The notes: generated by a model not told the origin, from the letters alone. Counted from the first letter of the stretch, positions 38,997-55,643 are shown. The stretch is DNA of 64,000 nt from Candidatus Cryptobacteroides sp. (GCA_051870255.1 JBJEBR010000064.1:15642-79641), one strand, 5' to 3'. Translations and numbers: made by a program.

Positions 38997-40748
38997 TCAT
39001 TTTATTTCGCCGTATGATATCACATAACCGTCCTTGTCGACGACATTCCCATCCTTTTCATAGAGTTTCTCACCCGCCGGGATCTCTACGACAAGCAGGA
39101 CTCCCCTGCCAGGAATCTGCACCTGACATTTGCCTGAGGCCCCTTTTGCCACAAAGGTACCTGATATCACATCGTACAGGTCATATTCCCCATTTGCATA
39201 TTGCATTCTCCCGTATGTGAGATGATTGTTGTCATATGTGAATCCCATATCGTTGGAATACGGATTGTAATAAAGGTTCACAGGATATTTCCTTGGTGTG
39301 TAGAAGTCGGTCACATTGCAGTCCAGGCGGATTATTCCTTCAACATCGGAAGGACTTATTATGGAGCCGAATATTCCGACAGGCGAACTGCTGTACAGTG
39401 AAAACATCGTTATCGTCCCGTTGGCCGAGGTCCAGGACGGGCCGTCCCCTTCTGCAACAGGGCACACCGATGCCGGATACACCCCGTACCGGTCGCGTTT
39501 CTTCAGGCCCTCATAGCCGATGACACCTCCGGCATGAGCCTTCAGCTCCGGAGCGAATTGGTTGGCATCGTCTATATGTTCCGGATAGAAAAGACGGGTG
39601 GCACTGGCTGCATGGTACATCCATTTTGCTATGGTATGGGCATACTGAGGAGCATATTTCACCAGAGGGACCAGAGGCATGGCCATTTCGAAGCTGTTCA
39701 TGAGAAATGCATAGCCTCCGCCGTCACTCCAGCTCCCCTGAAGGCCATACACGTCATATTGTCCCCATTTTTCATTTATTACGCCCCATCCGTAGCGTCC
39801 GGAATATGACTTGCATCCGTCGAATGTCCAGTCAAGCATCTTCAGCACATCGTACGAGGTGCCTGCAGTGGCGTTCAGATATGCCGCGCAATAGGCTCCG
39901 TATGGGAGCAATATTTCATACAGACGGCTTTCCGTCTGTGAATCAAGTGCTTCTATCGCACTCTTCGCTGCATCGAGATATGTTTCGTCCCCAAACTTGA
40001 GGTAGGAATGAAGGAGGACATATCCGTGACCGCCGGCGGCATCCTCCTGTTTGGGAATGTTGTTGTCTATCGGGCTCATATTCGCGAAGTTGAAGGCGGA
40101 ATGGGAGTAATTGCCGCCCAGGGCCTCCTCCGCGCGGACAAACTGGTCCGCAATGTTTCGCTGTATCTCATCGGAGCCTTCGACATCCGGGAACACATCA
40201 CAGACAGCGCTGTACAGGACATTCGGAAGAATGTTGTACCACCAGTCAGAGGAATAACCGGAGGTGTTGTTCAACATTATGCGCCATCCACTGCGCTTTC
40301 CGTAATATTGCTGGAGCATACGGGGGTAATTAAAGCCATCCTGATTCGTCTTGTCAATCCCCACGAGGCCGGCTCCGAGAACGGCGGCCATCGTATTTAT
40401 GGCTTCATGTGCTCCTGGTTTCTGCGGTCCCTGACGGCTGTCTCCCACGGTAGTATAGAGGCCGAAACCGTCAAAGCTGACATTGTTGTGGCTTGCATCG
40501 GTCCACACCAACGGACGATATTCATCGGTTGCATTCCTGTCGAACACGAAAGCATCGTAGCCGCGAGCCAGACCGTACCAGTCAATAAGTTGGTAAGTTC
40601 CTGATATATAAGGCATATACAGAACACGGCCAATCTGCTGCTGAGGGATGTTGCGTCCCTCTGCAATCTCGGGCATTTCTGGTTCAAGGGAATTATTGCA
40701 TGATGCAAGCACGGTCATACATGCAACCAATAGAAAGAAGTTCTTCAT
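38997..40748 (-). CDS. PUL lipoprotein of unknown family, paralog 2 (candidate glycoside hydrolase)
   Basis: Lipobox LASC; colinear with 46369-48111 (FGLYT, GIDKT, DWWY, DAAGGHG, ESR.YEILLP, GYEGL, GDGP). Confidence 0.8.
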   Translation of the reverse strand: MKNFFLLVACMTVLASCNNSLEPEMPEIAEGRNIPQQQIGRVLYMPYISGTYQLIDWYGLARGYDAFVFDRNATDEYRPLVWTDASHNNVSFDGFGLYTTVGDSRQGPQKPGAHEAINTMAAVLGAGLVGIDKTNQDGFNYPRMLQQYYGKRSGWRIMLNNTSGYSSDWWYNILPNVLYSAVCDVFPDVEGSDEIQRNIADQFVRAEEALGGNYSHSAFNFANMSPIDNNIPKQEDAAGGHGYVLLHSYLKFGDETYLDAAKSAIEALDSQTESRLYEILLPYGAYCAAYLNATAGTSYDVLKMLDWTFDGCKSYSGRYGWGVINEKWGQYDVYGLQGSWSDGGGYAFLMNSFEMAMPLVPLVKYAPQYAHTIAKWMYHAASATRLFYPEHIDDANQFAPELKAHAGGVIGYEGLKKRDRYGVYPASVCPVAEGDGPSWTSANGTITMFSLYSSSPVGIFGSIISPSDVEGIIRLDCNVTDFYTPRKYPVNLYYNPYSNDMGFTYDNNHLTYGRMQYANGEYDLYDVISGTFVAKGASGKCQVQIPGRGVLLVVEIPAGEKLYEKDGNVVDKDGYVISYGEIK

Positions 40749-40772: not shown

Positions 40773-40804
40773 GATCCGGCTGCGGCATCACCCGCAGCCG
40801 GATC
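40773..40804. other. Intra-operon 13-bp GC-rich hairpin
   Basis: gatccggctgcgg-catcac-ccgcagccggatc, no U-tract on the coding strand. Confidence 0.7.
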
Positions 40805-40816
40805 AGGAAAGTGAGA

Positions 40817-41836
40817 TTATTTCTCGCTGTTGTAAAGTTTTGAAACCTGTCCTGCAGTGAGGGCGATGTTGTAAACCTTGAACTCGTCAAGAAGTCCCCA
40901 GAAGCAAGACCAGTTGGTCTCGTTTGCATCTGCAGGGTTGAACCAGTCATCCTTGCATGCAGTCTCCCATGAGCACTGCTGGCCGATGCAGAGGTAGTTG
41001 TCGTCGAAGGTCGGGATGGTTCCCTTCACCTTGTTCTCCCAAGCCTTTGTGAGCTGGCCGTCAACATAGAAATTGACTGTTCCGGCTGTAAGGTCTGATG
41101 ATACTACGACATGGTGCCACTCGTTTGCAGGGCAGCTGTTGTCAGTCTCATTGTCCATGTCGGCAATTCCGCCAGTGTAGGCAAGAGTCATGAAAGGCTT
41201 GCTGCCGTCCTGGAGCTGGAACTTCCATGAATCCCAGCGGTTGAATGAAATGATGTAGTTGTTTGCATAGACCTTTGAAGGGTTTACCCAAACTGCGATT
41301 GAAAGGGCCGAACCTGCAAGAGAAGCCGGATTGAAGCCTTTGACATTGAAGTTTGCTCCCTTCTCGAGTTTCACAGCCTTGCCAACCTTTCCGTCAACAT
41401 ATGTAGGGTAAGTTGCAGTAGGGAATACTTCCTTTGGACCGCAAGCTGCCTCAAGAGTCCAGGCGTTTGCACCGGTGGTCTTGTCTGCCTCTCCGTCGAA
41501 TTTGCACTCCATTGTCAGGGCTGCCGCAGGAATTGCATCATAAGCTGCTGCCTTGAAGGTTTCAATGGCAGCCTTGAGGTTGCTGACGATGTTGTCGATC
41601 TGTGTCTGGGTTGATGCTGCTTCTGCTGCTGTCTTTGCATTGCTGATTGCAGTCTTGAAAGTAGAGATTGCAGAGTCAGGATAATCATCGGTTGTAGCGG
41701 CATTTGCAATAGCTTCTGCCTCAGCTACGACAGCATTGAATTCTGTCTTGTCAAGGTCAGATCCAACTTTGGTCTGACATGCTGCAAATGAAAGTGCAGC
41801 GATTGCCATGATGGCGATTGTCTTTAAAGATTTCAT
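40817..41836 (-). CDS. Surface glycan-binding lipoprotein (FIVAR-like helical domain + LamG/ConA-like domain)
   Basis: Lipobox FAAC; LDKTEF..FKTAISNAK helical repeat; DGKVGKAV, SIAVWVNP, EWHHVVV, FYVDGQL, LDEFKVYNIALT. Confidence 0.82.
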   Translation of the reverse strand: MKSLKTIAIMAIAALSFAACQTKVGSDLDKTEFNAVVAEAEAIANAATTDDYPDSAISTFKTAISNAKTAAEAASTQTQIDNIVSNLKAAIETFKAAAYDAIPAAALTMECKFDGEADKTTGANAWTLEAACGPKEVFPTATYPTYVDGKVGKAVKLEKGANFNVKGFNPASLAGSALSIAVWVNPSKVYANNYIISFNRWDSWKFQLQDGSKPFMTLAYTGGIADMDNETDNSCPANEWHHVVVSSDLTAGTVNFYVDGQLTKAWENKVKGTIPTFDDNYLCIGQQCSWETACKDDWFNPADANETNWSCFWGLLDEFKVYNIALTAGQVSKLYNSEK

Positions 41837-41870: not shown

Positions 41871-43289
41871 TTATTTTATTGAAGTATTAATATCCGTTTC
41901 AGACTGTGGCAGAGGGAAATAATATCTTTCTGCATTCCATGGGAGATCCGGAAGAGCTGTGGTTGCATACTCCTTCCCGTAACGCATCAGGTCGAAGAAT
42001 CTTTGGAATTCGAAGCTTAGCTCCCTGCGGCGTTCCTTGCGGATGAGCACACGCATCTGGTCCTGTGACAAGCCGCTTACCTGTGCGAGGTTGGCGCGCG
42101 ACCTTACCCTGTTGAGCGGAATTTCTGCACCGGCCTGGCTGCTCTCATTGAGGGCTTCGGCCTTCATCAGGAGCACATCGGCATATCTGAGTATGTGCTG
42201 CGGGATGGTACTCTGTGAGATTGCTTCTCCTTCAGGAAGAGCTTCGTGGTATTTCTTCACGAGATAACCTGTTGCCTCTGACCAGCTTGAAGAGAATGTA
42301 GTGCCGAACCATGGTTGACCTTCCCTTCCGATTGAAGCATCAAGGCGAGGGTCTGTCTCCCCGTTGACTGTGGATTCGTCAAATGTCCTCACGAAGTCTT
42401 CTGTAGGAGCATTGAAGTAATATCCTCCTTCAGGAGATGGAGCAAACCATACGTTGAGGTTGTTTCCGAGCTGAGCTGTAGTGTTGTTTGCATATCGTAT
42501 TGCGAACATGCTCTCCACACTGTCTTCTCCACCCCTCATGAACAGGTCGCTGAAGTTCTGCTCCAAATCATAGATGTCCAGCTGTTCAATCTGTGATATG
42601 GCTCCAAGGCAGGCATTGTAGTCTTTTTGATAGAGTTTGCTCTTTGCAAGAAGGGCTAAGGCAGCTCCACGGGTAACACGGCCCGCTTCTGATGGAGTAT
42701 ATTCCTCCGGAAGGACTGTCACTGCATCGGCAAGATCCTTGTCGATCTGCTCATAGATTTTGTCTATACCTGAAAGGCCCACATGGATGGCATCATGGTT
42801 GTCCTGCGGCAAAAGCTTTAGAGGTACTTGTCCGAATATGTTCACCAGATTGAAGTATGAATATGCCCTGAAGAACTTGCTCTGTGCCACATAGGATGCC
42901 TTTGTCTGCTCGTTGATATTCATCTTCTGAACATTGGTGATGACATTGTTGGCACGCGTAATCGTCTCGTATGTATGCTGCCAGAACTCATTAATTGGGC
43001 CATTGTCGGCAGTAGCGGAAAAATTGTCGATACTGTTGATGTCAGCCTGGTCACCTGCATTTCCCCCTTTGACTGCATCATCGGAAGCGACATCCGTGAA
43101 AATCCACAGTTTGTGATCGTACAGGGAGTTGTAAACCCCGTTTACGGCCATTTCGGCATTTTTGGCATCCTTGTAGAAACTCTCCGAAGTATATCCGCCT
43201 TTGAGCTCTTCGTCAAGGAAGTTGCATGATGTTGCCCACATGGCAGCAGATGCAATCAATATGCTGTATGTTAACTTTTTCATTTTCAT
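41871..43289 (-). CDS. SusD/RagB family lipoprotein
   Basis: ATSC, FRAYSYFNLVNIFGQVPL, RYADVLLMKAEALNE, ERRRELSFEFQRFFDLMR. Confidence 0.95.
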   Translation of the reverse strand: MKMKKLTYSILIASAAMWATSCNFLDEELKGGYTSESFYKDAKNAEMAVNGVYNSLYDHKLWIFTDVASDDAVKGGNAGDQADINSIDNFSATADNGPINEFWQHTYETITRANNVITNVQKMNINEQTKASYVAQSKFFRAYSYFNLVNIFGQVPLKLLPQDNHDAIHVGLSGIDKIYEQIDKDLADAVTVLPEEYTPSEAGRVTRGAALALLAKSKLYQKDYNACLGAISQIEQLDIYDLEQNFSDLFMRGGEDSVESMFAIRYANNTTAQLGNNLNVWFAPSPEGGYYFNAPTEDFVRTFDESTVNGETDPRLDASIGREGQPWFGTTFSSSWSEATGYLVKKYHEALPEGEAISQSTIPQHILRYADVLLMKAEALNESSQAGAEIPLNRVRSRANLAQVSGLSQDQMRVLIRKERRRELSFEFQRFFDLMRYGKEYATTALPDLPWNAERYYFPLPQSETDINTSIK

Positions 43290-46200
43290 TAGAATGTAAT
43301 ATTAAGTCCAAGAGTGATGCTCCTTGCCACAGGATATGTTCCCCAGTCGATGCCGTTGGCCCTGTCACCTTCAGATGCGGAGTTCGTACTTACGGTCATC
43401 TCCGGATCCAGTCCTGAATAGCCGGTCAGGGTGAAAAGGTTCGAACCTGCGAGATAGAGGCGGCAGTTTGAGACTGCGCATCCTTCCGGAGTTTTGAAAT
43501 TGTATCCCACCTGCACGTTCTTGAGCCTTACATAAGAGCCGTCTTCAAGGAACCTGGTAGATGCCTTCACGTTGTTGGTCTTTCCGCTCCAGGATGCACG
43601 AGGCTGGGTGTTCGAGTGGTTGGACTCGGTCCAGTGCTCATCGTAATAACGCTTGGTGAGGTTGAATCCTCGGTAATATCCCTCGATGTCATAATTGATC
43701 TGTGAGAATATTTTCTGTCCGAAAGCTCCCTGGAAGAACATTGAAATGTCCCAGTTCTTTATATTGAAGCTAAGGTTCAGACCGGCCGTGAATTTCGGGA
43801 TGGCACTTCCGCAATATGTACGGTCCTTCTCATCTATCTTTCCGTCTTCATTCACATCCACATATTTGACATCTCCCGGCTTGATGCTGCCAGCCGGTCC
43901 CTGGTTTGCGCTCATCATGATCTCGGTTTCGTTCTGGAAGATTCCATCCATTTTGTAAAGGAAGAACGAACCTATCGGATAACCTACCTGGGTGAGGGTC
44001 GCATATACTCCTGAATCGACACGTCCGCTCTGAATCGGGGCATTGAGCGACAGCACCTCGTTGTGGAGATAACCTCCGTTCAGGGTGATGTTGAATCCCC
44101 AGTTCTCAAAGTTACGGCGGTAGAAGATTTCAAGGTCCACACCCGTATTCAGTACGGAACCGTTGTTGATCCATGGAGCGGAAAGATATCCGACTGATGA
44201 TGGTACGGATTCCTGCACGAGCATATCCTTTGTAACTTTATAATAGTAATCCACACTCACCCCGAAAGTGTTCCTGAACCCTTCAAAATCGATTCCGGCA
44301 TTGAACTGGTTTGAAGTTTCCCATTTCAGGTTTTCGTTTGCAAGAGCAGTCTGTGCATATCCGTTCGACACTCCTGAGCCGAAAGCATAATAGTAGTTAG
44401 GATTGTAGCGGTCGTTATAGGCATAAAGTCCTATGTTCTGGTTACCGATTGAACCGTATCCAAGACGAAGTTTCAGTTTGTTAATCTTATCAGTGTTGGA
44501 TTTGATGAATGATTCCTCTTCGATGTTCCAGCCTGCGGAAACTGAGTAGAACGTTCCCCATCTGTTTTTCTTGCTGAACCGGGATGATCCGTCCTCGCGG
44601 ATTATTGCCGAAGCATAATATCTGTTGTCATAATTGTAGTTTGCAGATGCAAAGAATGACATGAGAGCCGATCCGGACTCTCCCTGAACCGCACGGTTAA
44701 TACCGTTTCCGAGTCCTACATAGAGAAGATTGTCGGAAGTGTCGGAGAATATTGTGTCGGACACACCGGTGGTACGTGCATGATTCTTTACAAGCTCGAC
44801 ACCGACGAGATAATTTATGGAGTTTTTGCCTGCGGAAATCCTGTGGTTGAAGGTACTATTGAACGTCCAGTTGATATTGTTCTCCGAATTTACGTCAAGA
44901 CTGTTGGAGCTGTTGATCCTGTTGTTGCTTCCCCATGTAGGATTGAATGTACGGATTGAATAGTCGCGATAATCTACACCGGCTGTCGTATTCCAGAAAA
45001 TATCCTTTGTGAAATTGATGAGGATATTTCCCGTTGCAAGCAAGGATGCGGTGCGGCTGGTCCGGTCTGTATTCTCAATCAGGCCTTCTGGGCTGTAACC
45101 GTCTCCAAAAAACGTATTATAAACAGGATTGCCATAGTATTCGCTCGGAAGGTCCACATAATTGCCATTTTCATCATATACGGGTATGGCCGGGTTGCGA
45201 AAGAATGCATATCTAACCACTGAACCGCCCTCAGACGAACCGTATCCGTCTCCTGAACTCGAAACCATTCTCTGGTTGGAGATTGATCCGTTCACATTGA
45301 GGCTGACCTTGAGCCAGTCTTTAACCTGGGAAGATACATTGGAACGGATGCTTCCCCTCTGATAATTGGTGGATTTGATGATACCGTCCTGCCTGTAATA
45401 AGAACCGCTGATGATGTACTGGGTCTTTTCGGTTCCACCGCTGAGCGAGAGCTCGTGCGAAGTGATAGGTGCCACACGGAAGATTTCCTTGACATGGTTC
45501 ACGTCTGCAAAGTCCTTGACGTAATCGCCTTCTATGAGGGGACGCTTCACCACTGATGAGGCATTGTCCGAAGCAGCCGCCTCATTGTACATTTCTATAT
45601 ACTGGGCAGTATTGCACATCGGTGTCAGGTGGCCGTGCATCTGGATACCGGTCTGCATGTTGTAAGATATCCTTGACGTTCCTTTAGAACCGCCTTTGGT
45701 TGTGACAAGAACGACTCCGTTGCTTGCACGTGATCCATAGATCGCAGCAGACGAGGCATCCTTGAGGACGGTGATGTTGTCGATGTCGTTAGGTGAAATG
45801 TTATTCAGACCTGATTCCACTGGGATTCCGTCCACGATGTAGAGAGGTTCGTTGCTGGAGCTGATGGAGCTTGAACCACGCACACGGACAGATATTGCCG
45901 ATCCCGGAGCTCCTGTCTGGTTCGTTACCTCAACGCCAGAGATACGGCCCTGGAGAGACTGTGAGATTGAAGCGACGGGAACCCTGTTGAGATCCTCTCC
46001 GCCCACCTTGCTCACAGCTCCGAGCACATCGCGCTTTTTCTGCACGGAGTAACCTACGACGACCACGTCGTCGAGGAAGTTGGTGGCGGTTGTCATTTCG
46101 ACATTGATTTCGCTGCGGCCCTTAACCACCACTTCAATGTCGGAATAGCCCACGCAAGTGAATTCAAGGACGGACTCATTGGAAGGAACAGTGATTTCAT

Positions 46201-46369
46201 AACGTCCGTCGAGGTCTGTGATTGTACCGGAAGTCGTGCCTTTTATGACGACTCCGGCTCCGATTACCGGCTCATTGTTGGTCGGATCGATGACCACACC
46301 GCTCACCTTGATCTGCGCGAAAAGCGAGACAGGGAGAAGAGCCAGAATGAGCATGATTAGTCGTTTCAT
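43289..46369 (-). CDS. SusC/RagA family TonB-dependent transporter
   Basis: VVVGYSVQKK, PLYIVDG, LKDASSAAIYGSRASNGVVLVTTKGG, LKWETS, FLEDGSYVRLKN, YPVAR..GLNITF. Confidence 0.97.
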   Translation of the reverse strand: MKRLIMLILALLPVSLFAQIKVSGVVIDPTNNEPVIGAGVVIKGTTSGTITDLDGRYEITVPSNESVLEFTCVGYSDIEVVVKGRSEINVEMTTATNFLDDVVVVGYSVQKKRDVLGAVSKVGGEDLNRVPVASISQSLQGRISGVEVTNQTGAPGSAISVRVRGSSSISSSNEPLYIVDGIPVESGLNNISPNDIDNITVLKDASSAAIYGSRASNGVVLVTTKGGSKGTSRISYNMQTGIQMHGHLTPMCNTAQYIEMYNEAAASDNASSVVKRPLIEGDYVKDFADVNHVKEIFRVAPITSHELSLSGGTEKTQYIISGSYYRQDGIIKSTNYQRGSIRSNVSSQVKDWLKVSLNVNGSISNQRMVSSSGDGYGSSEGGSVVRYAFFRNPAIPVYDENGNYVDLPSEYYGNPVYNTFFGDGYSPEGLIENTDRTSRTASLLATGNILINFTKDIFWNTTAGVDYRDYSIRTFNPTWGSNNRINSSNSLDVNSENNINWTFNSTFNHRISAGKNSINYLVGVELVKNHARTTGVSDTIFSDTSDNLLYVGLGNGINRAVQGESGSALMSFFASANYNYDNRYYASAIIREDGSSRFSKKNRWGTFYSVSAGWNIEEESFIKSNTDKINKLKLRLGYGSIGNQNIGLYAYNDRYNPNYYYAFGSGVSNGYAQTALANENLKWETSNQFNAGIDFEGFRNTFGVSVDYYYKVTKDMLVQESVPSSVGYLSAPWINNGSVLNTGVDLEIFYRRNFENWGFNITLNGGYLHNEVLSLNAPIQSGRVDSGVYATLTQVGYPIGSFFLYKMDGIFQNETEIMMSANQGPAGSIKPGDVKYVDVNEDGKIDEKDRTYCGSAIPKFTAGLNLSFNIKNWDISMFFQGAFGQKIFSQINYDIEGYYRGFNLTKRYYDEHWTESNHSNTQPRASWSGKTNNVKASTRFLEDGSYVRLKNVQVGYNFKTPEGCAVSNCRLYLAGSNLFTLTGYSGLDPEMTVSTNSASEGDRANGIDWGTYPVARSITLGLNITF

Positions 46370-48111
46370 TACCTATAAGATATTATATTGTTATTTACCA
46401 AAAGTTTACCGTTATCCTCAACGATTTCGGCACCGGCGGGCAGTTCGACGACCACTGCGGCAGTATCACCTCCGAGACTTATCCTGCATTTGCCTTTCAC
46501 GTTTTTAGCGAGATATGTCTTTGAGACAATATCGAAAAGATCAGTATTCTCCGAAGACAGTTCGTATGTCACTTTCCTGGACTGGCCGAACGGATTGTAC
46601 ATGAGGTTGACCGCGTAAGGACGCTCTGAATAAAAGTCGGTCGCATTGCAGTTCAACTTGAGGATACCTTCGACATCAGTCGGAGTCACGATCGCTCCGA
46701 GAATTCCGCAGGCTGAAGTGCTGTACAGGGAGAACATGCTTTCCTTAGGATTGGTCGGATACCAGAGCGGGCCGTCGCCGAGGGCCACCGGATGAACTCC
46801 TTCCGGCACAGCTGAGTATTTTTCGTTCTTTGTGCTGAGGATGTTCTCAAAACGGAGTCCCTCATAACCTACGATGCTGTTGGTGTAGTCCTGCATGCCC
46901 GGGAGGCACTGGTTTTCGTCAGGGAGCTGGTCAGGGAAAAAGAGACGGCAGTTGTTGGCAAGATTCAGCATCCATTTTCCGATTGCGCGTGCATATTGAG
47001 GCTGGTATTTTGCCACCGGCACGAAAGGCCATGCCACATCTATGCTGTTCATCAGGAAAGCATATCCGCCGCCGTCAACAAGGCTGCCCTGAAGGCCGCT
47101 GATCTCATAATCTCCCCACTTGCCGGCAGTTATTCCCCATCCTGTCCTGCTGTTCACAGGATTCGTACATCCGTCAAACACCCATGAGAACATCTTTGCA
47201 AGATCGTAGTCGCAGCCATACTGTGCATTAAGGCGTGCTGCGGTATAGATGCCCATCGGGAGGAGGATTTCATAAAAACGGCTTTCCTTCTGGGAGTCGA
47301 GAGCCGCTATTGCACTCTTTGCCCTTTCGAGATAACGTTCGTCACCGTATTTTTCATAAGCGGCGAGAAGAACCCATCCATGTCCTCCGGCGGCATCCTG
47401 CTGGAGGGGAATCCAGTTCACCATTCCCTTCATCCTGGAATAGTCGAAATATGAATAGTCATAATTGCCGTCCAGGACTTCATCTGCTTTTGCAAACTGC
47501 TCCGCAACGGTATATTGGATTGCCTCAGCACCTTCAACACCTGGGAAAAGTTCGCAGACTGCATAATAGAGGATGTTCGGATACACGTCATACCACCAGT
47601 CCCTGCCGTATCCGCCGCCGAGAAGTGCAACATCCGGACAGGTGTTGTTCATGACGATGTTCCAGCCGTTGTCCTTGTTGAAATAGTTCTGCACCATCTT
47701 CACATAGTTGTATCCTTCCGGTGAAGATGTCTTGTCTATTCCCATCAGGCCTGCGCTGATAAGAGCATGGAGAGTGTTGAGACTCTCATGGAACTCCCCG
47801 TTGTTGCGGTCCGGTCCCTGACGGTCATCGGCCATAGCAGTATAGAGGCCGAAAGTCGGCTGAGGGAAATTCCTCTGTGCGTTGTCAATCCAGATTACCG
47901 GGCCGGCTGGAAGCGTGGAGTTGAAATCGAATGCGTAGGCATCGTAGTCAAGAGCTTTCTGTTTCCAGTCGAGCATCTTGTAAGGCTGAGGAAAATCGGC
48001 CATCATATCAACGCGTGAAATCGGTTCCTGTTCTACTGGCTGACCTATAGGGGTCTGGGCACATGAGCAGGCTGCAAGGGCAGCAACTGCCATGATTGTG
48101 GTCTGTTTCAT
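46369..48111 (-). CDS. PUL lipoprotein of unknown family, paralog 1 (candidate glycoside hydrolase)
   Basis: Lipobox LAAC/SC; helical-barrel-like segment DAAGGHGWVLLAAYEKYGDERYLERAK; paralog of 38997-40748. Confidence 0.8.
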   Translation of the reverse strand: MKQTTIMAVAALAACSCAQTPIGQPVEQEPISRVDMMADFPQPYKMLDWKQKALDYDAYAFDFNSTLPAGPVIWIDNAQRNFPQPTFGLYTAMADDRQGPDRNNGEFHESLNTLHALISAGLMGIDKTSSPEGYNYVKMVQNYFNKDNGWNIVMNNTCPDVALLGGGYGRDWWYDVYPNILYYAVCELFPGVEGAEAIQYTVAEQFAKADEVLDGNYDYSYFDYSRMKGMVNWIPLQQDAAGGHGWVLLAAYEKYGDERYLERAKSAIAALDSQKESRFYEILLPMGIYTAARLNAQYGCDYDLAKMFSWVFDGCTNPVNSRTGWGITAGKWGDYEISGLQGSLVDGGGYAFLMNSIDVAWPFVPVAKYQPQYARAIGKWMLNLANNCRLFFPDQLPDENQCLPGMQDYTNSIVGYEGLRFENILSTKNEKYSAVPEGVHPVALGDGPLWYPTNPKESMFSLYSTSACGILGAIVTPTDVEGILKLNCNATDFYSERPYAVNLMYNPFGQSRKVTYELSSENTDLFDIVSKTYLAKNVKGKCRISLGGDTAAVVVELPAGAEIVEDNGKLLVNNNIISYR

Positions 48112-49391
48112 TACTTCAAGTCTTTATAGTCAGTGTCAATAACTTTGATTATGTGTTTTGCAAGCGGGAGGGAAATCAGCTGGATTGCGCCAACGATGAG
48201 CAGGGCGTAACGCAGTGCCGAATCCTCTGAGAAAACAGCGGCAATCACGATGAAGAGGAGCATTCCGAGAGCCCTTCCTGCGAAGAGGCCCAGCTCATGG
48301 GAAAGTATGTATGTGTATCCGTCCCTCTTCTCAATTGCCGAAACAGTGTCGATTGTCTTCATCATGGTTGGATAATATGCCAGGTCATGGATCGGCTGGA
48401 AGAAGATTTTGCAGATGATGAAGATATATGCTCCGGCTGCGGAGAAAAGAATGCTGTTTGCAAGACAGCCTGCAAAGAAGACGAAGAGTCCGGTACCGAA
48501 TATTGCCATCCTGTGCTGCGGTTTGGCAACACGGCCGAGGACATACACTATTACAGCCGTAAGCGCTCCTCCTATGCCCTGGATGAGGCCGAGTTCACCC
48601 TCTCCGCCAATGAACTTGAGGATGAGGATTGACGGCGCCGTCACAAGAAAGCCCTGAACCATACCCTTGAGCGAGGCGAGTGAAAGCATCTCGTTCCACA
48701 GCTTGTGGAATTTGACATGGAAGAAATTCTTGCTTTCAGGCTGCTTGAAATCTCCCCTTGAAAGTGCCACGCATGCGAGGACGGAGATGACCAGCGCACA
48801 CACGGTGACTATCTGGTAGCCGTTCTGGATGTTGAGCGTATGTCCGAATACCACTGCTCCGTCAACATTGGCTAACAGAGCACCGACAGCCACCGGTATT
48901 ACAATGTTCCAGAATGAGAAGAAGAAAGACTCGAAACCGAAGAAGTAGTTCCTGCCCTCGTCATTGGTCGAATAGAGGGTAAGAAGGTAACGGTTGGTCC
49001 AGAAGAAACCTGTTGTAAGACCAAGGAGAAAGCCGGTTCCGCATATCATTGTGGTGTTCACATTCTTTATGAACATCATTATCATCAGCGCCACGGCAGA
49101 AAACAGGATACCGAAACTGTATAGCACCTTCACATTGATTTTCTTGAGAAGCATGCCGTTTACCACGGCAGAAAGGGCGACACCGATATACATGCACAGC
49201 TGATAGACAATCACCATTGATGCGGCTCCTGTGTTGCGCATGATGTATGCTCCGGCAAAGATTTCCACAATCGGGAGAACCATCGCAAAGAGAAGGTTGG
49301 TCACAAGCAAGGTCTTTACAGCCTTCGGCTGTGAAAGAAAGAATTTAATTTCACCAGTTCCTTTCATCCCGATATTATTTAAGGCTCGCAA
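48111..49391 (-). CDS. MFS transporter (probable oligosaccharide importer)
   Basis: About 12 TM segments, GLTTGFFWTNR; coupled to the GH130 and paralog 1 genes. Confidence 0.82.
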   Translation of the reverse strand: MRALNNIGMKGTGEIKFFLSQPKAVKTLLVTNLLFAMVLPIVEIFAGAYIMRNTGAASMVIVYQLCMYIGVALSAVVNGMLLKKINVKVLYSFGILFSAVALMIMMFIKNVNTTMICGTGFLLGLTTGFFWTNRYLLTLYSTNDEGRNYFFGFESFFFSFWNIVIPVAVGALLANVDGAVVFGHTLNIQNGYQIVTVCALVISVLACVALSRGDFKQPESKNFFHVKFHKLWNEMLSLASLKGMVQGFLVTAPSILILKFIGGEGELGLIQGIGGALTAVIVYVLGRVAKPQHRMAIFGTGLFVFFAGCLANSILFSAAGAYIFIICKIFFQPIHDLAYYPTMMKTIDTVSAIEKRDGYTYILSHELGLFAGRALGMLLFIVIAAVFSEDSALRYALLIVGAIQLISLPLAKHIIKVIDTDYKDLK

Positions 49392-50421
49392 GAATTTCCT
49401 TGATTGAGAACTCAGCGCTGCATATTACCTCGTCAGATGCTCCATAGAATATTCTGACCGTATCATCATCAATCAGATACTGCCCGTTGGTGAAAACGAC
49501 ATTTCCGAAGAAACCTGTCTTCTCATAGTCGGCTATCGGCTCCATTATAGGTTCTTCGCTGCGTGCAAGGACTTTCGTAGGGTCATTGATATCGAGAAGA
49601 AGTGCGCCGAGGCAGTAGCGGTTTTCCGCATTGGCTCCATGATATATTTCAAGCCACCCTTCTTCCGTTCTTATAGGGGCGGCACCGGCGCCTACGCGGG
49701 TACAGTCCCATTTTCCCGGACGGGTAGTCGCAATGCAGACATGTTTGCCCCAGTGGATTCTGTCGGGTGATTCTGCCACCCAGATGTAATTGCCGCCAAG
49801 TTCCGGACTGCTCGGTCTGTGGAACGCATAATATTTGTCACCGATTTTCTCCTCGAACAATGCACAATCCTTGTTGTGAGGTGGGAAAATCATACCATGA
49901 CGGGTGATTGTCCTGAAATCCTTCGTTTCAATCAGGCCGACTCCGACGGCTACCGGTGAGACTTCCGTGAAAGTGAGGAAGAATCCGTCCTCAGTTGTCG
50001 CCACCCTGCAGTCCTCGATACCGAAAGACTCCTGGAAGCCCGCTCCGAAGATAGGCTTGATCTCAGGGTCCTCATAGAAGTGGACGTCATCGTCGCTGCA
50101 TACAGGACGGAGATAGGAAAGGGTCGTAAGATAGTTCTGCCCCTTGTAATTGATTACACGTGCATCTGAAGCATCAAGAGAAGGATCATCCTTGTCAAAA
50201 CAGAGCACCTCAATTTCCCCTTTGTCATTATAGATAGGGAAACTGATTTTTCCTTCCTGCTGGAGGGGCCTTTCGGCGACACGCAACAGAAGCCATGTCT
50301 TGCCGTTCATCTTGAATACACCGGGGTTCAGAAGGCAGGTAATTTCCATACCTGGGATGCATGCCTTCAGATCAGAAGGGCGGAGAATTGGATTATTCTC
50401 ATTTCTTTTTGCAATATCCAT
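49375..50421 (-). CDS. GH130 mannoside phosphorylase (beta-1,2-oligomannan phosphorylase-like), cytoplasmic
   Basis: LLNPGV..LLLRVAERP, YLTTLSYLR, FGIEDCRV, HNKD, HRP, RVGAGAAPI, YHGA, GFFGNVVF. True start MDIAKR at 50421; no signal peptide. Confidence 0.9.
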   Translation of the reverse strand: MDIAKRNENNPILRPSDLKACIPGMEITCLLNPGVFKMNGKTWLLLRVAERPLQQEGKISFPIYNDKGEIEVLCFDKDDPSLDASDARVINYKGQNYLTTLSYLRPVCSDDDVHFYEDPEIKPIFGAGFQESFGIEDCRVATTEDGFFLTFTEVSPVAVGVGLIETKDFRTITRHGMIFPPHNKDCALFEEKIGDKYYAFHRPSSPELGGNYIWVAESPDRIHWGKHVCIATTRPGKWDCTRVGAGAAPIRTEEGWLEIYHGANAENRYCLGALLLDINDPTKVLARSEEPIMEPIADYEKTGFFGNVVFTNGQYLIDDDTVRIFYGASDEVICSAEFSIKEILASLK

Positions 50422-50455
50422 ATTTTGTTGTGTTTTAGTGTCTGTGGAACGGTGG

Positions 50456-50526
50456 CAAAGGTATAATGTCACGCCCCTGCCATGGTGTACATTTTTTTCA
50501 AAGAGGTGTACTTTTTTATATCTTTG
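50456..50526. promoter_or_regulatory. Divergent PUL/HTCS promoters with phased direct repeat
   Basis: Minus TACCTTTG 50456-50463; plus TATCTTTG 50519-50526; GGTGTAC(A)TTTTTT at 50484 and 50505. Confidence 0.75.
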
Positions 50527-50540
50527 CAAAAAAGTGTACC

Positions 50541-53500
50541 ATGAAAGCGTATCTGAAATTGTTCTTTTTAATTTCAGCATTCTTCCTGCCGGTCTGTATG
50601 AAAGCCGACATCAGTTATCTCTCAAACAGGGACGGTCTGTCCAACAGCAGCGTCATCTGCATATATCAGGACAGCCAGGGATTCATGTGGTTCGGCACAT
50701 GGGACGGCCTGAACAGGTATGACGGGCGCCAGTTTGACATATACAGGCCGACTCTCGAGGACAATTCCATAAGCAGCAGCATCGTCAGGGATGTCATAGA
50801 AGACAGGGAGCACAACCTGTGGGTCGTCAGTGACCGTGGTATCGACCGTTTCGACAGGCAGAGAAACACTTTCAAAAGATATTTTTCCGACATAGCCCGC
50901 CTCGGACTCAAAGGGGAAAGGTCATTTTTCCTCAGCTGCGACTCAAGCGGTCAGGTCCTGGCGACAGTGTCCGGATACGGAGAATTCATATATGACATGA
51001 AGACTGACTCATTCAGGCAGGTTTCCGCCACTCCGGTTTCAGTGAAATATCAGGATTTTGATTTTACCTCAAAATTATGGACAAGGACGGATACTGAACT
51101 TACGGACGGAGATAATTCATATCATGATATCGAATTCTCCCAATTGAACCGGGAAGGGAACATAATCTGGGTGAAATACAGGGACAGCCATTCCCTGACG
51201 GGGATAGATGTAAAGAGCGGCACGGCAATGGCAGACATCCCTCTTCCTGGCGATGCCGGGAAAATCCAGTGTACAGAGGAATGGGAAGGATATGTATATG
51301 TCGGATTCAGTGAAGGTCTGTACCGGTTCTCTCCTGAAGGCTGCTCGGTGGAAATCCGGGGCGTTTCAATCCTTTCACTTTTCGGGCAGGATCAGATACT
51401 GTGGGTCGGTACGGACATGGACGGTCTCATTGTAATCAGCGAGAAGGAAAAACTGTTCAAATCCCTGACCTCCGACCGATGTCCGGCATTTTCAAACGCG
51501 GCTGTCCGGTCATTCTATCAGGAAACCCCTTCACTCATGTGGGTCGGGACAAAAGGTAACGGGCTTGTTCTGACGGACCTGCCCTCAGGCAGGGTGATCG
51601 AGTCTTTGGGGACAGCCAACGGACTGCCGGACAACAATGTGTATTCGTTATGCGAGGGTGATGAAATCGTATGGGTCGGAACCGACGGCGACGGGCTATA
51701 TTACATTGACAAGAAGCATCATGGCGTACACCGGCTCATCACTCCTGCTGAAGTGAAAATCAAGTCGGTATATGCGATTCTGCAGAGCGAGAGGAATGTC
51801 TTGTGGGTCGGGACCAGCGGATACGGTCTTTACCGTCTCACAATATCAAGGAGGAAGAATGACGATTACGAGGTGGTCTCATACCAGCATTTCTCAAAGG
51901 GAAACGGTCTGGAATCGGATATAATATATGCTTTGGGCAAGGATAAAGGAGGCCTGATATGGGTAGGCAGCAGAGGCGGAGGAATCAGGAATTTTAGTTA
52001 TGACGGATGTCCGGTTGAAATCGCCGTACAGCCTGAATATGAGGATGCCCTGAAAGAAATGACATGCATCCATGTATCGGAACAGGGTACGGTATGGATG
52101 GGGACAAGCCTTGGAGTATTCAGCTATATGGACGGCGAATTCGAACGACTGGACTCAAGGTATATCGCAGGAAGCAGCGTACACGGGATCATCGAGGACA
52201 TCAACGGCATGCTGTGGGTGAGCACAAACAACGGTCTGGTCCGGATTGACCGGACACGGCACCCTCTCGCCGAGACAAAATATGCAGTCGAGGACGGCCT
52301 GCAGAACAATGAGTTCTCCGACGGCGCCTTCTACCGGAGTCCCTACAACAATGAACTGTTCTTCGGAGGCATTTCCGGATTCAGCCATTTCAATTCTTTC
52401 CTTACAGGCAATTCGTCAGTTTTTCCGCCAATGAACATCAAATATGTGATGATTGACAATCAGAGGTCATACGACAGCCTTACGGAAAAGAACGGCAAAC
52501 TCGAACTCGTGATAGAACCGGGACACAAGACCCTGACCCTGGAATTCGCGACAATGGATTATCTGTCTGCGGAAAAATGCGAGTTATCCTATATGCTTGA
52601 GGGATATACCGACGGATGGGTGTACCTCGGGACTTCAATGAACATTGCATTCTCGAATCTCTCTCATGGTGATTACACTCTCAAGGTCAGGCATTCCAAT
52701 TCCGACAAACTCTGGAGTGATGACATCTATTCGATGGACATACGGGTCCTGCCGCAATGGTATGAGACCCTCTGGGCCAAGATGGCCTTCGCGGCGGCCA
52801 TATCCATTGCCTTAATCCTATTTATTGTAGGAATACAATCGCGGCGCCGTGCAAAGAAGATGGCTCAGGAAGAGGAAGCCCAACGGCAGAAGACAAACGA
52901 AATCCATGAAGCCAAACTGCGTTTCTTCACCAACATCGCCCATGAGTTCTCCAACTCCCTGACCCTCATCTACGGTCCGTGCAAAGAGATGCAGAAAATG
53001 AATTCCCTGCCTCCGAAAGGCAGGAAATACCTTGACTACATAGCAACCAACAGTTCGCGTATGCTCGGCCTGATCCAGCAGCTGATTGATTTCAGGAAGG
53101 CCGAAACGGACCATCTGAGCATACATCCCGAAGAAGTGGACATAAACGCCCTTGTAGAGCGCACGGAAAACTATTTTAAAGGGAAGATGGAGGAAAAGTC
53201 CATCAGGCTCGTTACGGACATCCGTTCGGATGACATCAAATGGGTGACAGACCTCGACAGCATCGAAAAGATTTTCTTCAACCTGCTTTCCAACGCGACG
53301 AAATATACGCCTGCCGGCGGACAGATTGACATCATCTGTTTCATCAGCGACGGCAAGCTGACGGTAGAGGTCAGGAACACAGGCCTGGGCATACCCCAGG
53401 AAAAACTCGATGCCATATTCGACAGGTTCGAGGTTCTCGACAGGTTCGAATCCAACATAAAGAAGGGAAAGATCAGCAACGGCATTGGTCTGTCCCTGTG

Positions 53501-54482
53501 CAAGACTCTTGTGGAAATCATGAACGGAAACATCTGGGTGGAAAGTGACGGCAGCACCTATGCCTCCTTCATTTTTTCGCTTCCGATGCTTCAGGCGGAT
53601 GAGAAGCCGAACGATTTTGTAAAACCGTCCATCTTCGAGCTCGACACGACTGCGGACCAGGAAGAGGAGCCCGGGGCAGAAAGGGCTTCACGGGCGACAA
53701 GCGGGAAAAGAATCCTCATTGTGGACGATGACGAGAATCTCAGGCATTTCGTAACGGACCTTCTTTCTGACAAATACGTGATGCTGGAAGCAGGCGACGG
53801 TCTTGAAGGTCTGGAATGTATCCAGAAAAATTTGCCTGACCTGGTGATATCTGATGTATCCATGCCTCAGATGGACGGTTTCCAGCTGCTCAAGAGGGTG
53901 AGGCAGGACAAGGCTCTGGAGCATATTCCCATTGTCCTGCTGACATCAAGCAATTCCGACGACAGCAAGAGGATGGGACTTGACCACGGTGCGGATGCCT
54001 TCATCAGCAAGCCTTTCAGCCCAGACATTCTCCTGTCGCTCATTTCCAACAAACTTGGCCGCGACGAGGCAATCCTGAGATATACCAATTCTCCATACAG
54101 CGCAATGGACAGATTCAGAGGGATTGAGATGAAGAAGGAGGACAAGGAGGCGCTGACAAAGATGACCGACATCATCCAGAAACACATTGACAGCGAGAGC
54201 CTTTGCATGGATTTCATAGCGGATGAGATGTCAATGAGCAAGATGAAGCTCTACCGTATGGTGAAATCGTGCCTTGGAACCACGCCAGTGGAATACATCA
54301 AGACACTGCGTCTGGAAAAAGCGGCAAAACTGCTGGTCGGGACCTCACAGACCGTCCAGCAGATAATGTATGAATGCGGATTCAACACCAAGACCTATTT
54401 CTACAGGGAATTCGACAAGAAATACGGCTGCACTCCGAAACAATACAGGGATGAAGCCAAGGAAAACATTCACAACGAATAA
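50541..54482 (+). CDS. Hybrid two-component sensor/regulator (HTCS)
   Basis: Beta-propeller repeats (GLSNSSV, MWFGTWDGLNRYDG), Y_Y_Y, TM, FFTNIAHEF (HisKA), NLLSNATKYT, GIGLSL, receiver (ISDVSMPQMDG), AraC HTH. Start at MKAYL (50541). Confidence 0.97.
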   Translation: MKAYLKLFFLISAFFLPVCMKADISYLSNRDGLSNSSVICIYQDSQGFMWFGTWDGLNRYDGRQFDIYRPTLEDNSISSSIVRDVIEDREHNLWVVSDRGIDRFDRQRNTFKRYFSDIARLGLKGERSFFLSCDSSGQVLATVSGYGEFIYDMKTDSFRQVSATPVSVKYQDFDFTSKLWTRTDTELTDGDNSYHDIEFSQLNREGNIIWVKYRDSHSLTGIDVKSGTAMADIPLPGDAGKIQCTEEWEGYVYVGFSEGLYRFSPEGCSVEIRGVSILSLFGQDQILWVGTDMDGLIVISEKEKLFKSLTSDRCPAFSNAAVRSFYQETPSLMWVGTKGNGLVLTDLPSGRVIESLGTANGLPDNNVYSLCEGDEIVWVGTDGDGLYYIDKKHHGVHRLITPAEVKIKSVYAILQSERNVLWVGTSGYGLYRLTISRRKNDDYEVVSYQHFSKGNGLESDIIYALGKDKGGLIWVGSRGGGIRNFSYDGCPVEIAVQPEYEDALKEMTCIHVSEQGTVWMGTSLGVFSYMDGEFERLDSRYIAGSSVHGIIEDINGMLWVSTNNGLVRIDRTRHPLAETKYAVEDGLQNNEFSDGAFYRSPYNNELFFGGISGFSHFNSFLTGNSSVFPPMNIKYVMIDNQRSYDSLTEKNGKLELVIEPGHKTLTLEFATMDYLSAEKCELSYMLEGYTDGWVYLGTSMNIAFSNLSHGDYTLKVRHSNSDKLWSDDIYSMDIRVLPQWYETLWAKMAFAAAISIALILFIVGIQSRRRAKKMAQEEEAQRQKTNEIHEAKLRFFTNIAHEFSNSLTLIYGPCKEMQKMNSLPPKGRKYLDYIATNSSRMLGLIQQLIDFRKAETDHLSIHPEEVDINALVERTENYFKGKMEEKSIRLVTDIRSDDIKWVTDLDSIEKIFFNLLSNATKYTPAGGQIDIICFISDGKLTVEVRNTGLGIPQEKLDAIFDRFEVLDRFESNIKKGKISNGIGLSLCKTLVEIMNGNIWVESDGSTYASFIFSLPMLQADEKPNDFVKPSIFELDTTADQEEEPGAERASRATSGKRILIVDDDENLRHFVTDLLSDKYVMLEAGDGLEGLECIQKNLPDLVISDVSMPQMDGFQLLKRVRQDKALEHIPIVLLTSSNSDDSKRMGLDHGADAFISKPFSPDILLSLISNKLGRDEAILRYTNSPYSAMDRFRGIEMKKEDKEALTKMTDIIQKHIDSESLCMDFIADEMSMSKMKLYRMVKSCLGTTPVEYIKTLRLEKAAKLLVGTSQTVQQIMYECGFNTKTYFYREFDKKYGCTPKQYRDEAKENIHNE

Positions 54483-55477
54483 AGCCTGCCCTGGAATGTA
54501 TTTCGTTCCGACAGGCGCCTGTCCAGCAGGCGGAGGAGTTCGACATTGCGGATGAGGCCCCAGGGAGTGGAGTTCACGAAGCGTGGCGGGACTTCTCCGG
54601 CGAAGCGTTCTATGAAAAGGTCGGGGCGGAGGCGCTCAAGCATGTCCACGAAGAAATCTATGTATTCATCGAGGGCGAAGCGTTCGAAATCCTGAGGACA
54701 TTCGGCGAATTCCTTTTCCATCCGGGTGCCCTTGACTATCTGAAGCTGATGGAATTTGGCTGACAGAATCGGCAACTCGTTTATCAGGGCACATTCCTCA
54801 AGCATCATCTGCCGGCTTTCGCCAGGCAGGCCGAGGATGAAATGCGCACCCATGTCGATGCCCCTTTCCGCCGTCATTGCCGCCGCCCTGCGGGCCGTAG
54901 CGAAATCATGCCCACGGTTGACCCGCTCCAAGGTCCTGTCATAGCACGATTCCACGCCATATTCCACAATCACCACCGGAGCCGTCCTCTCCACACCCTC
55001 GCCATTCTCTCCGGAGAGGGTCCTGCGCCACCGTGGCATTTGAGTACCGTCGGCAAGCGAGGCTATGAAATCAAGTTTCCTCTCGTCCACACAGTCAGGA
55101 CGCGTCCCGATGACGATTCCCACGACAGAAGGATGCGAGAGGGCTTCGAGATACAGTTCACGAAGCCTTTCCAAAGGGGCGTATGTATTGGAAAATGACT
55201 GGAAATACGCAAGATAATGCTCTGTCGTCCTGTAGCGGACACGGTGGAATTCGATGCCCTCGTTTATCTGCTGGTGGAGACTCTTGCCGGATGTGCTGTA
55301 TGCCGGATGGAATGCGGCATTGTCGCAGAACGCACACCCTCCCCTGCCGACCATGCCGTCCCTGTTTGGGCATGTAAAACCGGCATCGATCACGATTTTC
55401 TGAAGGCGTTCGCCGTATTTCTGTCTGAAATAGCCTACAAATGAGTTATATCTTTTGTCGTTTGGGAACATCAGCAT
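54470..55477 (-). CDS. TIGR01212 (YhcC-like) radical SAM protein
   Basis: DAGFTCPNRDG, GGCAFCDN, YFQSFSNTY, GTRPDC, HFILGLPGE. Confidence 0.9.
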   Translation of the reverse strand: MLMFPNDKRYNSFVGYFRQKYGERLQKIVIDAGFTCPNRDGMVGRGGCAFCDNAAFHPAYSTSGKSLHQQINEGIEFHRVRYRTTEHYLAYFQSFSNTYAPLERLRELYLEALSHPSVVGIVIGTRPDCVDERKLDFIASLADGTQMPRWRRTLSGENGEGVERTAPVVIVEYGVESCYDRTLERVNRGHDFATARRAAAMTAERGIDMGAHFILGLPGESRQMMLEECALINELPILSAKFHQLQIVKGTRMEKEFAECPQDFERFALDEYIDFFVDMLERLRPDLFIERFAGEVPPRFVNSTPWGLIRNVELLRLLDRRLSERNTFQGRLYSL

Positions 55478-55643
55478 CAGTAATTTATATCAGGCATGCA
55501 AAGATACAATTCTTAGATTAATAAATAAAGTTTCGCAAGCGGCACAACCTTCAGGATCTGAATTACATATCACTCGCGAAACTTTAATGAATAATTGCTA
55601 TATTCGCACGGCCAAACTGAAACTAATGGACAACCAAAATATT

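Follow-up and report, generated by a model that had tools for sequence, protein, structure and literature searches.

What supplies the short β-1,2-mannosides that a cytoplasmic phosphorylase of a Candidatus Cryptobacteroides sp. appears equipped to consume? The question is raised by a polysaccharide-utilisation locus (PUL) in a 64,000-nucleotide stretch of that genome (GCA_051870255.1 JBJEBR010000064.1:15642-79641; hereafter the window, to which all positions given without a contig name refer), which encodes two paralogous lipoproteins without a named family. We call the product of 46369-48111 X1, that of 38997-40748 X2, and the family that contains both X. That X is a new family of (α/α)6 carbohydrate-active enzymes (CAZymes) is well supported computationally, with newness judged against Pfam, NCBIfam, the Protein Data Bank (PDB) and the literature. 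We lean, by a modest degree, towards the view that X is an uncharacterised glycoside hydrolase (GH) family, built of an (α/α)6 barrel and a β-sandwich, that depolymerises β-1,2-mannosides, and that X1 and X2 so feed the GH130 phosphorylase of the same operon.

Two Paralogous Lipoproteins

Both open reading frames (ORFs) are real. They are open on the minus strand, a point on which the first-pass annotation was silent, and the plus-strand translation at the same coordinates is riddled with stops. X1 and X2 align end to end, as had been claimed (BLASTP over ~575 residues: 46% identity, 64% positives, 538 bits, E = 0), and their likeness is far above chance. Since they form one small clade in the family tree, we take them to be recent paralogs. 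Every motif quoted earlier occurs in X1 and X2 alike (FGLYT..D.RQGP, HE, GIDKT, DWWY, Q[QE]DAAGGHG, ESR.YEILLP, GLQGS..DGGGYAFLMNS, GYEGL and GDGP), and X1 also carries YEKYGDERYLERAK. The lipoboxes are present as well, each with the invariant Cys after a hydrophobic signal that marks bacterial lipoproteins (SPII type): LAAC at residues 12-15 of X1 and LASC at residues 14-17 of X2. A lipobox recurs in 109/121 X1 orthologs and 98/120 X2 orthologs (about 85%).

Neither protein has an above-threshold match in Pfam or NCBIfam, and PDB sequences matched neither X1 nor X2 alone, nor a 30-sequence family profile. Database entries call members of the family "hypothetical" or "uncharacterized" throughout, and its earlier description as unrecognised is apt. 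An 8-residue indel preceding DWWY (NNTCPDVALLGGGYGRDWWY in X1, NNTSGYSSDWWY in X2) is real, and had been suggested to separate the roles of the two paralogs. That suggestion found no support: the CPDVALLGG insert is confined to the X1 clade, and the indel falls within the sole low-confidence loop of the X1 structural model (predicted local distance difference test, pLDDT, <50 at residues 163-167).

Predicted Fold and Tests of Family Membership

AlphaFold2 modeling of full-length X1 on a 30-sequence alignment gave a helical barrel (residues about 49-474) followed by β-strands at residues 475-580 (pLDDT 90; predicted template modeling score, pTM, 0.91). A barrel-only model was built from 25 diverse sequences, taken from the window and from fetched loci, to seek a closer structural relative (pLDDT 91, pTM 0.93). 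The helix pairs alternate, and Foldseek assigned a probability of about 1.0 to many six-hairpin enzymes, which backs the (α/α)6 barrel that the first-pass annotation had predicted. Searched against the PDB, the full-length model placed the GH127/GH146 β-L-arabinofuranosidases at the top (7EXW and others; E 1e-6 to 1e-4, probability about 1.0, template modeling (TM) scores 0.3-0.37). The barrel alone gave weak, scattered matches (E about 1e-3, best TM 0.49) to GH88, GH116, GH76, YihS/AGE, GH37 and GH127, the last at rank 32 or lower, as well as to mannose isomerase, cellobiose 2-epimerase and one polysaccharide lyase (PL). Almost all matches to these predicted models are six-hairpin carbohydrate enzymes, no named family is close, and the barrel-only model revealed no closer relative.

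GH127 and GH146 (HypBA1, BT3674, BT0349; PF07944, DUF1680 fold) resemble X in their architecture, an (α/α)6 barrel and then a β-sandwich, which the X1 model also displays. They are of similar size, exported, and found in Bacteroidota PULs. They differ in relying on a catalytic Cys with a Cys3-Glu zinc site and in acting on arabinofuranosides, whereas X stands in a mannoside context. We rejected membership in this group (PF07944, clan GH-P): PF07944 does not match at E ≤ 1, and hhalign against 12 GH127 sequences gave a probability of 4%. A genome-wide PF07944 search recovered a genuine GH127 on contig C11 and left X1 and X2 unmatched. The ExC and CC zinc/nucleophile motifs are conserved in all of the 12 GH127 sequences, including the host's own. 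Among 131 X representatives at ≤50% identity, over which conservation was computed, no Cys is conserved even at 50%, and the Cys nucleophile and the zinc site have no counterpart.

GH76 and related exported toroid proteins (BT3792, BT3782, YPO2471) share export and the six-hairpin fold with X. The highest barrel-only TM scores came from this group (4MU9, 0.49/0.58; 7TEM, 0.46/0.50; E 1e-3 to 1e-2), and GH76 acts endo on mannan in Bacteroides PULs. However, GH76 uses an adjacent Asp-Asp catalytic pair and has no C-terminal β-sandwich. An assignment of X as a GH76 endo-α-1,6-mannanase was dropped: PF03663 does not match, and the conserved acids of X are not adjacent.

Other toroid assignments fared no better. 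AGE, YihS and cellobiose 2-epimerase enzymes depend on a conserved His and are cytoplasmic; no His is ≥80% conserved across X, and X1 and X2 carry lipoprotein signal peptides. For toroid lyases (PL8/12/15/17/21-like), there was no match to Hepar_II_III or to any lyase model in Pfam and no GH88/105 or Kdu gene in the loci examined. One UniRef member is labelled "linalool dehydratase/isomerase domain", which we treat as an automatic superfamily label; Pfam is silent on it at E ≤ 0.1, and structures of that enzyme were not among the fold matches. Sub-threshold matches to C5-epim_C and LanC-like models all fall on one helix-turn-helix (AAGG..Y..GD.RYL), a generic toroid hairpin that we do not count as evidence of family.

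Extent of the Family and Its Conserved Residues

More than 3,500 homologs share sequence words with X. At 50% identity the family comprises 1,003 clusters, of which 347 lie below E 1e-30, and its members come from Bacteroidota, Paenibacillus, Cohnella, Bacillus, Clostridia, Acidobacteriota, Verrucomicrobiota, Aerophobetes, Bipolaricaulota and Hodarchaeales (Asgard archaea). Many members are multidomain, joining X to CBM32 (F5/8C), FN3 and SLH, to Ig/PKD, LamG and a type IX secretion system (T9SS) tail (Por_Secre_tail), to CBM9, or to dockerin. Modules of these kinds normally decorate secreted CAZymes, not binding proteins.

Five acidic positions, E109, D239 (D or E), E281, E417 and D446, are ≥90% conserved in the 131 representatives, as are many aromatics. 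The conserved polar core also includes N295, R322 and Q401, and the conserved Trp and Tyr residues are W173, Y174, Y280, W325, Y350, Y369 and Y463. In the X1 model most core residues lie at the starts of alternate helices (109, 172, 240, 283) or in C-terminal loops, positions that presumably bring them together on one face of the barrel. X2 keeps all of the family-wide carboxylates, and two of the five acids probably carry out catalysis. The earlier statement about conserved carboxylates holds family-wide for these five only, and several of the motifs quoted with it (RQGP, the H of HE, GGHG and ESR) are restricted to the X1/X2 clade.

In a third subfamily, X3, the X domain is joined to LamG and to a T9SS sorting domain; X3 thus amounts to the LamG and X2 genes, separate in the window, combined in one. 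Among 201 Bacteroidales genomes most carriers have X1 with X3, and only the host genome has X1 with a short X2.

Further observations concern distant members. One Hodarchaeales protein (P0420) has hydrophobic anchors at both its N- and C-terminus, and another (P0430, L091:10001-11914) has no sugar-related neighbours within 10 kb. Bacillus carboniphilus and Bipolaricaulota encode, ahead of X, a secreted protein of ~185 aa that matches no Pfam model (L089:9418-9978, L090:9395-9946, L105:9352-9918); its versions in the two phyla are 30% identical (E 1e-8). Segments that look similar by eye form part of X proteins themselves, twice at the C-terminal end in Paenibacillus P0406 and at the N-terminal end in P0417. 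This protein may be an undescribed accessory or carbohydrate-binding module.

The GH130 Neighbour

A phmmer search of the PDB matched residues 1-344 of the window's GH130 to Uhgb_MS (9EQQ, 9ERG, 9ERH) with E 7e-181 and about 80% identity. The N-terminus MDIAKRNENNP aligns with residue 1 of Uhgb_MS, and the equivalents of its E136, D137 and R88 are conserved (motif GIEDCRV). Experiments have characterised Uhgb_MS as an inverting phosphorylase that is specific for β-1,2-mannobiose and -triose (PMC12814180), and β-1,2-mannoside phosphorylases are typified by an E/K-type +1 subsite and by having no signal peptide (PMC7660257). The window's protein has the features by which those two papers allow a GH130_4 β-1,2-mannobiose phosphorylase to be recognised, namely homology, the proton-donor Asp with the β-1,2-specific Glu, and no signal peptide. 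The pathway thus has a well-defined end, in which short β-1,2-mannosides would be imported and phosphorolysed in the cytoplasm.

We dropped a reading in which the locus processes N-glycans by analogy with the Bacteroides thetaiotaomicron cluster BT1033 (GH130)-BT1034 (MFS)-BT1035 (GH163): the window's GH130 is of the β-1,2 type and not of the type that acts on Man-β1,4-GlcNAc, and DUF4838/GH163 does not match X.

Genomic Association Within Bacteroidales

The adjacent SusC/SusD pair, a regulator and CAZymes identify the window's locus as a Bacteroidota PUL. The operon runs GH130, MFS, X1, SusC, SusD, LamG/ConA-like lipoprotein and X2, with a hybrid two-component system (HTCS) gene divergent from it and an IMP dehydrogenase gene beyond X2. 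X1 and X2 are the only exported enzyme candidates in this PUL. The host genome is 98% complete; its single GH130 is that of the PUL, two GH92 genes lie elsewhere, and no GH76 gene was found in it. With one GH130 and no GH76, the host therefore lacks the apparatus for the yeast α-mannan backbone, and its PUL seems complete in itself for handling a β-1,2-mannoside substrate.

Gene order was compared across 80 loci, all taken from named genomes. Essentially all of those with a long enough flank keep GH130-MFS-X-SusC-SusD(-LamG-X2/X3), in families that include Bacteroidaceae, Paludibacteraceae, Dysgonomonadaceae, Prevotellaceae and Rikenellaceae, and the MFS gene sits between GH130 and X1 wherever the flank suffices. 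The PUL of B. xylanisolvens XB1A is minimal, with only GH130-MFS-X-SusC-SusD-HTCS, and X is therefore the sole exported enzyme candidate there.

Co-occurrence with GH130 across genomes, which the first-pass annotation had named as a check on its assignment, is strong. Of the 201 Bacteroidales genomes, 16 have both X and a GH130_4 ortholog, 2 have X only, 2 have GH130_4 only and 181 have neither (Fisher's exact p = 1.2e-19). Where both occur they are always on one contig, within a few kb. Both are missing from one genome of the host's genus and from another of its family. The PUL is found, patchily, in about 9% of Bacteroidales genera, a distribution consistent with gain or loss as a cassette.

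In the B. intestinalis PUL, 3' of the X3 gene (L001:19467-21737), we noted a protein of >1,135 aa with GH92 (α-mannosidase) and GH130 domains. Its composition hints that some versions of the locus handle mixed α/β-mannosides.

Genomic Association Outside Bacteroidales

Associations outside Bacteroidales are more telling evidence than the co-occurrence within that order. A Bipolaricaulota operon contains, in sequence, LacI, the 185-aa protein, X, a substrate-binding protein (SBP), permeases and a GH130 that is closest to Teth514_1788, a GH130_6 β-1,2-oligomannan phosphorylase (E 5e-79). A Firmicute-like contig has a Lin0857-type GH130 (2e-115), an ABC importer, an X member without a signal peptide and a DUF1861 protein that matches the GT108 mannogen mannosyltransferase/phosphorylases of Leishmania (3e-42). 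The members linked to GH130 or GT108 are scattered and far apart on the family tree. X is thus accompanied by three distinct lineages of β-1,2-mannoside enzymes (GH130_4, GH130_6 and GT108) and by three different import systems. The link to β-1,2-mannosides, which the first-pass annotation had raised in calling X1 and X2 the missing mannanases, is stronger than it could have known, given the identity of the GH130 and the company that X keeps in unrelated lineages.

The Firmicute-like locus also encodes a third, divergent GH130-family protein (L106:963-2066, 367 aa). Its Lin0857-like neighbour has PDB relatives at E ≤ 1e-20, but this protein has none and may represent an uncharacterised GH130 subfamily. 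On a different contig (L104, 12404-14647) an X protein carries an additional N-terminal domain, and after it comes a WbsX-like glycosyltransferase-family/LamG protein, with an apiosidase-like gene nearby and no GH130. This gene content suggests other specificities in some X clades.

Cellular Location

It had been proposed that the paralogs divide surface and periplasmic roles. Such a split is not visible: both lack a clear acidic lipoprotein-export signal, and elsewhere the second copy is mostly the T9SS X-LamG fusion, X3. At least two D/E residues at +2 to +6 after the Cys occur in only 5% of X1 and 3% of X2 orthologs, which speaks against surface exposure, although the motif rule is itself imperfect. 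X1 and X2, without the signal usual for surface export in Bacteroidota, may therefore face the periplasm, and the T9SS-tailed X3 would be the obvious surface form in other genomes.

Proposed Pathway and Alternatives

A candidate new glycoside hydrolase family is the best reading of X, as the first-pass annotation had it. In the pathway we propose, a glycan or oligosaccharide with β-1,2-linked mannose would be bound by the LamG protein and SusD and taken up through SusC. X1, X2 or both, as lipoproteins anchored in the outer membrane, would cut β-1,2-mannoside chains to a degree of polymerisation (DP) of 2-3, and the MFS carrier would import these fragments. The cytoplasmic GH130_4 would then split them to α-mannose-1-phosphate and mannose, both of which would enter glycolysis via phosphomannomutase and mannose-6-phosphate isomerase. 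The HTCS would sense an intermediate and switch the operon on.

Several points weigh against this. Phosphorylases alone can degrade linear β-1,2-mannan from the non-reducing end, and the need for X is not self-evident. Part of the co-occurrence in Bacteroidales stems from the PUL being inherited or transferred as a single cassette. Of the 8 contexts examined in other groups, 5 (Paenibacillus, Bacillus, Cohnella, Hodarchaeales and one further contig) have neither a GH130 nor a GT108 gene within 10 kb of X, and specificity may therefore differ between X clades; in two of these five, Bacillus and Paenibacillus, X is the only enzyme in operons with LacI and a CUT1 importer. With no clear surface-export signal on X1 or X2, the host genome has no obvious surface enzyme. 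Some members have no signal peptide (P0445, beside a GT108 gene, for example), and the family is therefore not simply one of extracellular endo-mannanases. Likeness of the predicted fold to every known family is weak (TM ≤0.5), and even hydrolase chemistry is therefore a prediction. What the analysis observed is the fold prediction, the lack of a named family, the export signals, the accessory modules, the identity of the GH130 and the genomic linkage; from these we infer hydrolase chemistry, β-1,2-mannoside specificity, the catalytic residues, the cellular side and endo or exo action.

The main rival, which we judge unlikely, is that X is a glycoside hydrolase that cuts a bond other than β-1,2-Man in a heteroglycan and so frees β-1,2-mannoside fragments for the phosphorylases. 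The bond might be the α-mannosyl or mannosyl-phosphate junction of yeast phosphomannan side chains, or lie in the backbone of a bacterial heteromannan. Such a partner would complement GH130_4, GH130_6 and GT108, which can trim linear β-1,2 chains without it. In nature, β-1,2-Man is known mostly from caps and side chains of yeast, mould and bacterial heteromannosides (PMC7660257), the GH92/GH130 fusion that extends the B. intestinalis PUL points to mixed α/β-mannosides, and many X members have no GH130 nearby. However, the minimal PULs and the host genome, with its one GH130 and no GH76, carry nothing for the rest of a heteroglycan. Three β-1,2-specific enzyme lineages accompany X, which has no recurrent partner from any other glycosidase family.

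It is quite improbable that X is a non-catalytic surface or periplasmic glycan-binding protein, resembling the surface glycan-binding proteins (SGBPs), with β-1,2-mannosides imported intact and degraded solely by phosphorolysis. Lipoprotein SGBPs are common next to SusC/D in PULs, X1 and X2 are lipoproteins, and the catalytic residues of X are predicted only. Against this, the six-hairpin barrel is an enzyme fold, whereas known SGBPs are β-sandwich or Ig-like, and the conserved carboxylates persist in about 1,000 clusters from bacteria to archaea. Members of X themselves bear CBM32, CBM9, LamG and dockerin modules, some are cytoplasmic, and the Gram-positive X operons already have a dedicated SBP.

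Least probable of all is a non-hydrolytic α/α-toroid enzyme (a polysaccharide lyase, an epimerase or isomerase of the AGE/YihS type, or a transglycosylase): the toroid with β-sandwich is also the architecture of several PL families, the barrel-only matches take in YihS, mannose isomerase, cellobiose 2-epimerase and one PL, and the recurrent C5-epim_C echo and the single linalool label would suit it, but X lacks the conserved His of AGE-type enzymes, X1 and X2 are exported, none of the loci examined carries uronate-processing genes (GH88/105, KduI/D), and the Pfam Ldi, PL and AGE models are unmatched even at E ≤ 0.1-1.

Other Features of the Locus

The features of the PUL are listed in Table 1. 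The start of X1 overlaps the stop of the MFS gene as TAATG, and X1/SusC and SusC/SusD share end coordinates; these genes are therefore translationally coupled. The longest GH130 ORF (49375-50580, 401 aa) overlaps the oppositely stranded start of the HTCS gene. Alignment with Uhgb_MS puts the true GH130 start at M54 (position 50421), which leaves a very short divergent promoter region toward the HTCS gene.

The gap between LamG and X2 contains a perfect hairpin, and RNAfold gave -30.6 kcal/mol for the 73-nt gap region. Strong hairpins of 11-17 bp, differing in sequence, occupy the same place before X2 or X3 in most of 29 related loci, some followed by a T-run. The hairpin looks like a conserved intra-operon terminator, attenuator or mRNA-stabilising element, which would separate expression of X2/X3 from that of SusC/D and LamG. 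The mannose-6-phosphate isomerase gene adjoins the PUL in only 2 of the 80 related loci; its product would fit the downstream mannose route, and we regard it as a candidate member of the system only.

Table 1. Coordinates of the PUL genes and associated features in the window.
Feature	Position	Strand	Description and basis
X2	38997..40748	minus	583-aa lipoprotein paralogous to X1; ORF and translation
Perfect 13-bp GC-rich hairpin	40773..40804	minus	GATCCGGCTGCGG / CCGCAGCCGGATC, 6-nt loop; between LamG stop and X2 start
LamG (Laminin_G_3 / ConA-like) lipoprotein	40817..41836	minus	PF13385; probable glycan-binding partner
SusD-family lipoprotein	41871..43289	minus	PF07980, PF14322
SusC-type TonB-dependent transporter	43289..46369	minus	CarbopepD_reg_2, Plug, TonB barrel domains
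X1	46369..48111	minus	580-aa lipoprotein; predicted barrel about residues 30-474, β-sandwich about 475-580; ORF and translation
MFS inner-membrane transporter	48111..49391	minus	PF07690; start codon uncertain
GH130_4 β-1,2-mannobiose/triose phosphorylase ortholog	49375..50421	minus	348 aa, no signal peptide; PDB phmmer
HTCS regulator	50466..54482	plus	Reg_prop, Y_Y_Y, HisKA, HATPase_c, Response_reg, HTH_18; kept upstream in related loci
Mannose-6-phosphate isomerase	55455..56618	plus	PF20511, PF21621

Comparison with Known Systems and Significance

The clusters of Teth514_1785-1796 (Thermoanaerobacter), Lin0857 (Listeria) and Uhgb_MS resemble the window's PUL in having a terminal GH130 β-1,2-mannobiose or oligomannan phosphorylase behind a dedicated importer. 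They differ in that the window's PUL has a SusC/D and MFS importer and a tightly linked, unnamed family of exported enzymes. The studies of Teth514_1788/1789 and Uhgb_MS characterised only phosphorylases, described no exported depolymerase and left the origin of the substrate open (PMC4264767, PMC12814180). Our literature search found no description of family X or of any endo-β-1,2-mannanase, all matches to "1,2-mannanase" being GH99 α-enzymes, with the limit that names containing commas are not searchable.

A functional analogue exists for β-1,2-glucan. In the systems that pair GH144 or GH162 SGL with GH94, an exported (α/α)6 endo-β-1,2-glucanase produces fragments that are imported and phosphorolysed in the cytoplasm. 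The system proposed for X would likewise shorten a β-1,2 homopolymer with an exported enzyme and phosphorolyse the imported fragments in the cytoplasm, but with mannose in place of glucose and GH130/GT108 in place of GH94. Structures of GH144 and GH162 are absent from the top 50 Foldseek matches of either X1 model, and there is therefore no specific structural kinship with X. We regard X as a new family, probably with a new activity, within a known kind of system.

To our knowledge, the known β-1,2-mannoside enzymes, the GH130 hydrolases and phosphorylases and GT108, are all exo-acting. β-1,2-Linked mannose is known mainly from three sources: Candida cell-wall mannan, where it forms immunodominant caps; mannogen, a reserve of Leishmania and related trypanosomatids; and various heteromannans of yeasts, moulds and bacteria. 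It is tempting, at somewhat short of an even chance, to see X as founding an ancient and widespread CAZy glycoside hydrolase family with an undescribed endo-β-1,2-mannanase activity, a depolymerase of mannogen or of Candida-type β-mannan.

If the favoured reading is right, an exported depolymerase family would complete the β-1,2-mannoside pathway and bring a new CAZy family and a new Enzyme Commission activity. It would explain a PUL of human-gut Bacteroides (B. xylanisolvens, B. intestinalis), rumen Bacteroidales and anaerobic-digester bacteria, and X would become a tool to tailor or analyse β-1,2-mannoside antigens. The breadth of the family, about 1,000 clusters at 50% identity with Asgard archaea among their sources, suggests an under-appreciated natural pool of β-1,2-mannosides. 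Should X prove to be an endo-β-1,2-mannanase, β-1,2-mannans would be a far commoner carbon source in the environment and the gut than the few known producers suggest.

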